IMG/VR virus record: IMGVR_UViG_3300043430_000238
Reading direction: 5' to 3' (one strand)
Origin: a virus
DNA length: 7,340 nt
In this document: one piece after another, positions 2,469 to 2,856 of the stretch
How positions within the stretch are numbered: the stretch's first letter is position 1
Layout of the letters: each line of letters opens with the position of its first letter
Position numbers and translations under genes: made by a program
The notes under the pieces: model-generated
Told to the model about the DNA's origin: nothing
Database searches by the model: none
What the model saw: only the letters and a program-made list of their open reading frames with translations

Positions 2469-2856
2469 AAATTAGCGCGCGCACTTTTCCCAGCAAAATT
2501 TCTGAGCGTGTGCAGGGATTTGAAGATGCGCTCAAGTGACTTCGCAAACGTCTTCGATGTACCTAAACAACGAAAAACAAAGATTAAAAAACTATGGTTA
2601 AGTTCAACAACGAGCTTGTGGATTGAGTTATTTCCTGTGAATTAAACCTGTGGAGAAATCAACGTATAACAGACACACCGTTATGCGGATTTATCCATAG
2701 TGTTTATTCACAGATCAGAAATAACGTTGCGAAGCACAATCCACATGCTCGGTTGAACTGCTTTTAATCGTTCGAGTTGTGAGGGTCATAGTTCAGAATC
2801 ACTAGCATTGAAAAACCAAAAAGAGAAGAAAACAGGAAAAGTGCGCGCGCTCATTT
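2469..2856. repeat. Long-range inverted repeat (2469..2490 with 2835..2856) closing a 344-nt non-coding domain
   Basis: The perfect 17-bp core AGCGCGCGCACTTTTCC (2474..2490) is the reverse complement of GGAAAAGTGCGCGCGCT (2835..2851). With AAAT/ATTT extensions the match is 21 of 22. The alternating (CG)4 core stands out in an AT-rich genome. The track shows no ORF of 60 aa or more between 2185 and 2866. Confidence 0.85.
2601..2759 (+). other. Rod-like imperfect hairpin of about 160 nt (roughly 59 bp) inside the closed domain
   Basis: Hand-checked pairings: 2601..2607/2753..2759 (7 bp); 2611..2624/2738..2751 (13 of 14); 2627..2634/2718..2725 (8); 2635..2642/2706..2713 (8); 2644..2647/2702..2705 (4); 2648..2660/2688..2700 (11 of 13); 2663..2670/2680..2687 (8, including one G-T). 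The loop is 2671..2679. Confidence 0.75.

Follow-up and report, generated by a model that had tools for sequence, protein, structure and literature searches.

A folded intergenic domain of a filamentous phage shares its core with Acinetobacter plasmids and is a candidate complementary-strand origin

The IMG/VR virus record IMGVR_UViG_3300043430_000238, a stretch of 7,340 nucleotides (nt) that we call the window, is a complete circular filamentous-phage genome whose nearest database relatives are Acinetobacter sequences. Between its gene I and gene II lies a large folded domain (2469-2856), to which an earlier note made from the sequence letters had drawn attention. Comparison with relatives gives strong evidence that the structure of this domain is under selection, and its inner part, a central rod, recurs in small Acinetobacter plasmids. 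By analogy with known systems, we consider it probable that the domain is a cis-acting structure of the packaged plus strand and that the central rod is the complementary (minus)-strand origin, i.e., a single-strand initiation (ssi) signal. While this functional class is well known, the sequence family, the clamp-closed architecture, and the sharing across four replicon types are new.

The domain is closed by an outer stem, hereafter the clamp, in which 2469-2490 (aaattagcgcgcgcacttttcc) pairs with 2835-2856 (ggaaaagtgcgcgcgctcattt) at 21 of 22 positions, including a perfect 17-bp core. A repeat search lengthened this stem to 27 nt (89% complementary); 344 nt separate the arms. As DNA, the segment 2440-2880 folds at -90.5 kcal/mol, compared with -48.7 +/- 4.2 kcal/mol for dinucleotide shuffles (z = -9.9), and none of 100 shuffles folded as well; as RNA, the same segment gave z = -8.2. 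The earlier description of a large non-coding domain closed by a GC-rich stem was therefore borne out, as was its statement that the enclosed 344 nt hold no open reading frame (ORF) of at least 60 aa: the sole ORF of at least 30 aa within the domain has 45 aa (2508-2645, plus strand). A conserved short ORF, the coding alternative that the note had raised, does not explain the domain either, because the ORFs found in homologues differ in position, strand, and length. The rod at 2601-2759 was likewise confirmed, with about 62 pairs and with a tip in which CGTATAAC pairs with GTTATGCG, one of the pairs being T.G. The placement "where Ff carries gene IV", on the other hand, needs correction, since gene IV is absent from this phage and the domain merely lies in the intergenic region after gene I and upstream of the plus origin. 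A search of Rfam 15 at a permissive E-value, which the note had suggested, found no relevant family; the only matches were two chance-level microRNA matches elsewhere in the window.

Homologues were collected by several routes. blastn against plasmids detected the whole domain, with 71% identity and the same fold (z = -10.5), in pM131-7 of Acinetobacter sp. M131 (NC_025170.1; L121). This 6977-nt sequence was deposited as a plasmid; it encodes Zot, DUF2523, and a pII/X replication protein, and it is an inovirus replicative form, not a plasmid. With the rod tip as a search pattern, eight more phage-type copies were recovered in viral contigs and 57 loci in metagenomes. The comparison set comprised 13 phage-type domains and about 40 plasmid-type rods, all of them distinct, in which the invariance of the tip stem is partly imposed by the search pattern. 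One phage-type locus, L221, was found independently of the tip sequence, via pII homology and a covariance model. The rod was present in only 4 of the 33 viral-contig loci newly retrieved through pII, a count that leaves out a 34th pII locus, L127, as a known rod carrier. Six of the 14 viral-contig matches of a looser tip pattern (L126, L128, L130, L132, L134, and L136, four of which are near-identical) had no rod homology, and the metagenome match L140 was set aside as unrelated to the rod. A scan of genome contigs with the 17-mer clamp core matched no genomes other than unrelated GC-rich ones. When the intergenic region was compared with phages by blastn, the sole match was one of 53 nt in phage M02, which corresponds to the plus origin, not to the domain.

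Covariation analysis of these sequences, a check also proposed in the earlier note, was strongly positive. Across 51 distinct rod sequences, 97.8% of the cells were paired, compared with 32-50% when the partner was slid by 1-3 columns, and 26 of 49 pairs showed changes on both sides; no shuffle reached the observed values. When the fold of this phage was imposed on the whole domain of the 13 phages, 86.1% of the cells were paired (41-44% when slid), with double changes in 60 of 142 pairs. The same architecture is kept in all 13 inovirus sequences, namely a clamp on the outside, a middle duplex with imperfect pairing, a rod of about 60 bp, and a side mini-hairpin. The sequence of the clamp is nearly free among relatives (AGCGCGCGCACTTTTCC, GGGCGGGCGGTTTTCC, GGCACGGCACGGCTTCC, and, in L221, the AT-rich GATCTGAAATAAAAG), and 89.7% of its cells are paired with double changes in 15 of 21 pairs. 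The rod helices are 98-100% paired across the 13 phage domains. All three pairs of the side mini-hairpin are kept without exception (100%) in the 13-phage alignment, one of them with G-C to C-G swaps; the variants are TGC-GAA-GCA, TCC-GAA-GGA, TCC-GGA-GGA, and TCC-GCA-GGA, and most plasmids have TCGC-TT-GCGA or TCGT-TT-ACGA. Among relatives, the tip loop varies in sequence and in length (9-12 nt), and in many of them complementarity between the two ends of the loop would extend the stem.

Conserved long-range helices were also found in the middle part. Two of them, found by conservation, join 2525-2529 to 2805-2809 (GATGC/GCATT vs AAAGC/GCTTT) and 2584-2589 to 2762-2767, and a third, GTGA(C)TTC/GAATCAC (2536-2543/2796-2802), has compensatory variants that were read from the 13-phage alignment. 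Because such helices exist, the domain is best described as one long imperfect hairpin. The earlier note had proposed instead that a bulge of the rod at 2726-2737 pairs with 2536-2551 to give a junction or pseudoknot. The complementarity is present in this phage, but relatives do not keep it, and the junction or pseudoknot was rejected: 4 of the 14 proposed pairs are broken in 9-10 of the 13 sequences, the change that compensates the G/C change in the bulge lies nearby, inside the fully paired mini-hairpin, and the partner with which the left segment GTGA(C)TTC covaries is instead GAATCAC (2796-2802).

The fold is also strand-specific. G.T cells numbered 341 and A.C cells 9, and the fold of the plus strand is more stable than that of its complement in all 51 rods (mean -36.8 vs -27.7 kcal/mol) and in all 13 phage domains. 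Every phage copy of the domain is located between gene I and pII, in the orientation of the phage genes. In plasmids, the rod shares its strand with rep in all 45 cases and with the relaxase gene in all 49. Among the loci examined, each replicon carries one copy in the same context and on the same strand, double matches being due to concatenated circular contigs. Rod matches never fall in coding regions; all true ones are either phage-intergenic or located between rep and mob.

Phages and plasmids have in common only the inner rod, not the shell formed by the clamp and the middle part. The rod (about 2606-2755) occurs in 37 PLSDB records, 37/37 of them from Acinetobacter and several from clinical isolates, mostly of 3.8-8.7 kb, and it is never annotated there. 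The gene order in these plasmids is rep (a ColE2-type initiator-primase with Replicase, PriCT_1, and helix-turn-helix domains), rod, mobC, and relaxase. The distance from the rod tip to the relaxase gene is 552-653 nt in 35 of 42 cases and that from rep to the rod is variable (121-1449 nt); some rod carriers have mob genes and no rep ORF. Between the rod and mobC, an inverted repeat is followed by a conserved block on the rod's strand, an arrangement that would fit a nick on this strand. These two elements are probably oriT; no nick site was identifiable in the aligned rod-mobC region of the plasmids. The conserved block just upstream of mobC (L123 1190-1290; L122 3395-3460) reads CAGGGGCTTCACCCCCGACACCCCCGAAAAC or, in a variant, CAGGGCAAGCCCCCGAAACCCCCAAAAGC. 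In L122, the sequence directly after rep, AAATCAGATATCAGCCCC, resembles the ColE2 origin. Seven rod matches were observed in a 36-kb plasmid of Acinetobacter variabilis (CP094251.1; L229), perhaps because small plasmids with the rod are joined in it as a concatemer or cointegrate.

Carriers of the rod or domain thus include inoviruses with a Phage_CRI initiator, an inovirus with a Rep_trans initiator, ColE2-type plasmids, and mob-only plasmids. In L135, the inovirus of the second kind, a Rep_trans (RstA-like) initiator is encoded at 5448-6605 and the same clamp-closed domain lies at 4016-4465; no protein similarity was detectable between this initiator and the Phage_CRI initiator. Phages that share just 25-36% pI identity with this phage have the domain, too. 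The occurrence of the rod with unrelated initiators, with divergent pI, and in plasmids without rep points to a host factor, and the need that these carriers share would be the conversion of single-stranded DNA (ssDNA) to duplex by host enzymes. Furthermore, the order of structured element, plus origin, and gene II mirrors that of the Ff intergenic region. Plasmid ssi signals and filamentous-phage minus origins are established to be interchangeable; ssi signals were first found through their ability to replace the M13 minus origin (Nomura et al. 1991). Mini-hairpins of the type C-GNA-G or GCGAAAGC have been reported at the priming site of phage G4 and in RSF1010 ssiA, and C-GNA-G triloops are described as a DNA-specific stability motif (PMC13037366). 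The domain has such a GNA mini-hairpin, GCGAAGC in this phage and CCGAAGG, CCGGAGG, or CCGCAGG in relatives, with compensatory changes in the stem.

If the rod is a complementary-strand origin, it may work as follows. After infection, single-stranded DNA-binding protein (SSB) of the host coats the circular plus strand, and the clamp together with the long imperfect duplex would snap about 400 nt back into an SSB-resistant rod. The rod would then display the AA bulge below its 8-bp tip, the ATCA loop, the G.T pairs, and the C-GNA-G mini-hairpin to a host priming activity. Because a promoter scan found no sigma-70-like -35/-10 hexamers on either strand of 2464-2861, DnaG primase or a PriA-type primosome is a likelier candidate for this activity than RNA polymerase. 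An RNA primer would be made, host polymerases would finish the replicative form, and pII would subsequently act at the Ff-like plus origin 520 nt downstream. In plasmids, the rod would start synthesis on the strand that is displaced from the ColE2-type origin or transferred in mobilisation. As for the shell that only the phages have, it may just support the rod against SSB, or it may in addition act as a packaging signal.

A close model is the intergenic region of the Ff phages (M13, f1, and fd). There, too, non-coding hairpins specific to the viral strand follow the last assembly gene and precede the plus origin; the plus origin of this phage shares the core of M13 hairpin D, and the domain may plausibly be dispensable in the same way as the Ff minus origin. 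However, the domain is one nested, clamp-closed structure of about 190 bp-equivalents, whereas Ff has separate hairpins, and it shows no sequence or covariance-model similarity to the Ff B/C hairpins. It also differs from Ff in that it has no -35/-10-like hexamers, in that its core is common to plasmids, and in that about 500 nt with direct repeats and a dif-like attP hairpin lie between it and the plus origin. To our knowledge, minus-strand origins and packaging signals have been determined experimentally for very few filamentous phages outside Ff; a paper on Acinetobacter filamentous phages mentions neither of these nor intergenic cis elements.

The ssi signals of plasmids (G4-type signals, phiX174-type primosome sites, ColE2 ssiA, and RSF1010 ssiA/ssiB) are likewise strand-specific non-coding hairpins beside oriV or oriT, including in ColE2-type replicons, and RSF1010 ssiA has in common with the domain the CCGAAGG/GCGAAGC mini-hairpin. 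Unlike them, the rod belongs to a new sequence family that was confined to Acinetobacter in the plasmid collection (37/37 records), and it is a single long rod, whereas G4-type signals have three hairpins. The complementary-strand origin of phage G4 (also of St-1 and alpha3) presents GCGAAAGC or GCGTTAGC as an SSB-resistant mini-hairpin at an ssDNA priming site (PMC13037366). That phage, however, belongs to the Microviridae, its origin has no homology to the domain and another overall fold, and the mini-hairpin of the domain is a side branch of a long rod. Frpo of the F plasmid, an ssDNA promoter of the type found in leading regions, is a long imperfect hairpin on incoming ssDNA that host enzymes use to start synthesis. 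The domain resembles it in being a long imperfect ssDNA hairpin but, unlike the stem of Frpo, in which -35/-10 hexamers are used, had none that we could find.

Several points weigh against a complementary-strand origin. Its function is deduced solely from context and analogy. The rod has no sequence or covariance-model similarity to the M13 intergenic region (5300-6407), no Rfam family matches the domain, and, without -35/-10-like hexamers, it would not be an RNA-polymerase-dependent origin of the Ff type. The middle part is poorly modelled, as the middle helices of the minimum-energy fold of this phage are only 60-74% paired in relatives. The domain is possibly transcribed, in which case it may have a role at the RNA level. 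Finally, most pII-related inovirus loci, including a 95%-identical relative, are without the domain. It is hence dispensable or replaceable, which fits a selfish or accessory element equally well; the Ff minus origin is itself non-essential, and dispensability in relatives is consistent with this.

The absence from relatives can be followed at nucleotide resolution. In L225, whose flanks are about 95% identical, position 2353 is joined directly to 2972, so that a 619-nt block holding the domain is missing, and the junction (AAGCCTGA followed by TTTTTAAAG; L225 6245-6260) shows no target-site duplication relative to this phage. L218 (8464-8480) joins 2306 to 2981 with 16 nt between them. At the same spot, L227 (4964-5169) has a different hairpin of 205 nt with AGTGCGTGTGCTG/CAGCACACGCACT as its closing stem; after it comes a second hairpin, whose loop is GCGAAG. 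The domain is accordingly a replaceable, modular cassette and, to judge from these genomes, is probably dispensable. The variable spot is bounded by conserved ...AAGGCGTAGTCTAGAC... and ...GAACAAGYCTCGCAAACTTGCG...; it is empty in L225 and L218 and filled here and in L227. L203, considered as a recent cassette swap relative to L202, was rejected because it is an uninformative prophage-host junction with a major facilitator superfamily (MFS) transporter gene. An acquired hairpin element, one of four options in the earlier note besides a minus-strand origin, a packaging element, and a structured RNA, is hence partly right, in that some close relatives have the block with the domain and others do not. 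Of the four, the best fit is an unusual minus-strand origin that may also have a packaging role.

A packaging (morphogenetic) signal, i.e., a long hairpin that marks the end of the plus strand where assembly starts, as Ff hairpin A does, is an unlikely alternative; such a role could cover the whole domain or the shell alone, and it is compatible with the rod as a minus origin. The domain is the most strongly structured hairpin of the intergenic region, in which the stretch from gene I to the domain is not significantly structured (z = -1.7). It also lies 5' of the plus origin, as in Ff, and its shell is found in phages and not in plasmids. However, the rod is common to plasmids without known packaging, the domain is conserved despite the divergence of the assembly proteins (pI, see above), and the absence of the whole block from close relatives would be unexpected if it were the sole packaging signal. 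Other hairpins of the intergenic region, at 2935-3040 and 3045-3181, are further candidates. When restriction to packaged genomes is taken as the yardstick, the rod drops out through its occurrence in plasmids, and the phage-specific shell remains a candidate.

It seems improbable to us that the domain is a structured RNA that serves regulation or stabilisation in phages and plasmids, be it the 3' untranslated region of the gene I transcript or a small RNA of its own. The segment does fold well as RNA, as mentioned above, many G.U-type pairs are conserved, and, in phages as in plasmids, the element is oriented like the genes upstream of it. Because a terminator scan found no plus-strand terminator from gene I to 3326, the domain may also be transcribed. 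In addition, one mini-hairpin variant, GCUUGC, would form a CUUG tetraloop in RNA. Against an RNA stand the lack of an Rfam match and of promoter-like or terminator-like sites within the domain, and the DNA-specific nature of the C-GNA-G stability motif (PMC13037366). The gene content of the carriers is, moreover, unrelated; the feature that they share is ssDNA, not a common mRNA.

A selfish foldback insertion, similar to a miniature inverted-repeat transposable element (MITE) and functionless for its carrier, with the closing stem as terminal inverted repeats, has a comparably small chance of being correct. Like MITEs, which are of similar size, the domain has inverted-repeat ends and is polymorphic in presence, since the 619-nt block is present or absent among near-identical phages and L227 has a different clamp-closed hairpin at the spot; the distribution among pII-related phages is also patchy. 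Unlike those of MITEs, however, its end repeats covary: they vary freely and yet stay complementary, which indicates selection on pairing, not on a transposase binding site. Nor do the other traits of the domain agree with a MITE, as there is no target-site duplication, one copy per replicon with a fixed orientation and type of location at the phage and plasmid loci examined, no match in coding regions, and in plasmids the inner rod without the ends.

We regard it as quite improbable that the rod is, or doubles as, an inovirus packaging signal that would make the small mobilisable Acinetobacter plasmids natural phagemids. The idea derives from the presence of the rod on one fixed strand in both kinds of replicon and from its constant distance, in plasmids, from the mobilisation genes that make single strands. 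If it were true, a co-resident filamentous phage would export plasmid ssDNA in virions, a second route of horizontal transfer.

The last alternative is a connection to Xer recombination, in which the rod tip would be a XerC half-site that recruits XerC to the folded strand together with two dif-like sites downstream. As the earlier note had recognized, the reverse complement of GTTATGCG, CGCATAAC, is also present at 3045-3052 and 3174-3181; the tip duplex has CGCATAA(C), the core of these XerC-side arms, and the phage integrates via dif-like sites that fold into a forked hairpin. This link is hardly credible, since the L221 tip (CGTAAAAC/GTTTTGCG) keeps its pair through a compensatory change but reads CGCAAAA and so loses CGCATAA, there are two inverted XerC-like half-sites only and no XerD arm, their spacer is variable and 9-12 nt long compared with 6-8 nt in Xer core sites, and an 8-mer match within about 400 nt on two strands, noticed post hoc, has by our own estimate a chance of about 1%.

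A covariation-supported ssDNA domain of about 400 nt with a portable core of about 150 nt is now defined, and this core is reused by inoviruses whose initiators belong to two unrelated families and, in a single genus, by plasmids of the ColE2 and mob-only types. Should the core be a host-primed start site, as a complementary-strand origin would be, it would show what the Acinetobacter priming machinery recognises on ssDNA, account for an unannotated conserved block in 37 Acinetobacter plasmid records, and be available as a building block of phagemid or shuttle vectors for Acinetobacter. It would also mean that phages and plasmids exchange origin modules in nature, the counterpart of the ssi rescue of M13 in the laboratory. 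The rod is a new sequence family and not a new principle.

Table 1. Coordinates of the domain, its parts, and associated features in the window
Feature	Position	Strand	Description
5' flank motif AAGGCTCAC	2459-2467	+	Adjoins the clamp; in 12 of 13 phage-type homologues
Clamp, 5' arm	2469-2490	+	GC-rich; 21 of 22 paired with 2835-2856
Clamp, 3' arm	2835-2856	+	GC-rich; pairs with 2469-2490
Phage-specific middle, 5' half	2491-2600	+	Sequence conserved; imperfect pairing with 2760-2834
Middle segment, 3' half	2760-2834	+	Includes a purine-rich, mostly unpaired run at 2811-2834
Central rod, about 60 bp	2601-2759	+	About 62 pairs; about 2606-2755 is the module common to Acinetobacter plasmids
Apical hairpin	2661-2687	+	AA bulge at 2661-2662; 8-bp stem CGTATAAC/GTTATGCG with invariant T.G; 9-nt loop
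3'-side 4-nt internal loop ATCA (in AGATCAG)	2714-2717	+	Unpaired in all folds; ATCA/ATTA in phages and plasmids
Side mini-hairpin T-GCGAAGC-A	2728-2736	+	C-GAA-G DNA mini-hairpin branching off the rod
3' flank motif GGGAAACC	2858-2865	+	Adjoins the clamp; GGGAAAC/T or GGGAAGA in most phage-type homologues
Presence/absence block, 619 nt	2354-2972	+	Holds a 22-nt repeat twice (2383-2443), the domain, and a 26-nt repeat twice (2872-2934)
Ff-like plus-strand origin	3377-3420	+	Hairpin D GAGTCCAC-N11-GTGGACTC with another small hairpin after it; 520 nt downstream of the domain

The two flank motifs, AAGGCTCAC and GGGAAACC, are absent from plasmids, L135, and L221, and they could be the boundaries of an exchanged module. 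In L181, exact AAGGCTCAC was seen twice together with one near-copy. Direct repeats adjoin the domain on both sides, a perfect 22-mer, TAAAAGAAAAATAGTGTAATGA, at 2383-2404 and 2422-2443 and a 26-mer, TGGAG(C/A)GAATGGAACGGAAAGAGTGT, at 2872-2897 and 2909-2934; the core GAATGGAACGGAAAG was seen again after the domain in L124. These repeat pairs may be protein-binding iterons.

As for the wider setting, a Zot-type pI gene is located at 970-2184 and an Ff-type pII gene, with Phage_CRI and G2P_X_C domains, at 3741-4961. A long, imperfect hexanucleotide repeat (ACAGGC/ACGGGT) at 1-340 and 7078-7340 encodes Thr-Gly runs and is presumably part of pIII; because it runs through both ends of the window, it fits a circular genome cut within the pIII linker. 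The domain sits in a 1.2-kb non-coding stretch that extends from gene I to a minus-strand ORF at 3421-3687. In this stretch, the plus origin at 3377-3403 (GAGTCCACGTCTTCTAATGGTGGACTC) matches M13 plus-origin hairpin D on the same strand and consists of GAGTCCAC-GTCTTCTAATG-GTGGACTC, followed by the small hairpin TCCGA-TATT-TCGGA. Matches to the pattern GAGTCCACGTNNTNTAATNGTGGACTC occur at M13 5766-5792 and in six related inovirus loci, the origin is also kept in pM131-7, and the segment is 98% identical to that of Acinetobacter phage M02.

Two dif-like sites in inverted orientation were observed at 3041-3068 and 3158-3185, with arms (3045-3066/3160-3181) that are 86% complementary and 93 nt apart. 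As a single strand they are predicted to fold into a forked hairpin reminiscent of the attP(+) substrate of CTXphi for XerCD. The minus-strand ORF at 3421-3687 (88 aa) has no Pfam match and is kept beside pII in relatives, with a 66-aa form in L202. Three TGCATGCATG-type repeats at 3657-3729, toward gene II, are overlapped by this ORF, and the ORF and the repeats together look like a repressor with its operators.

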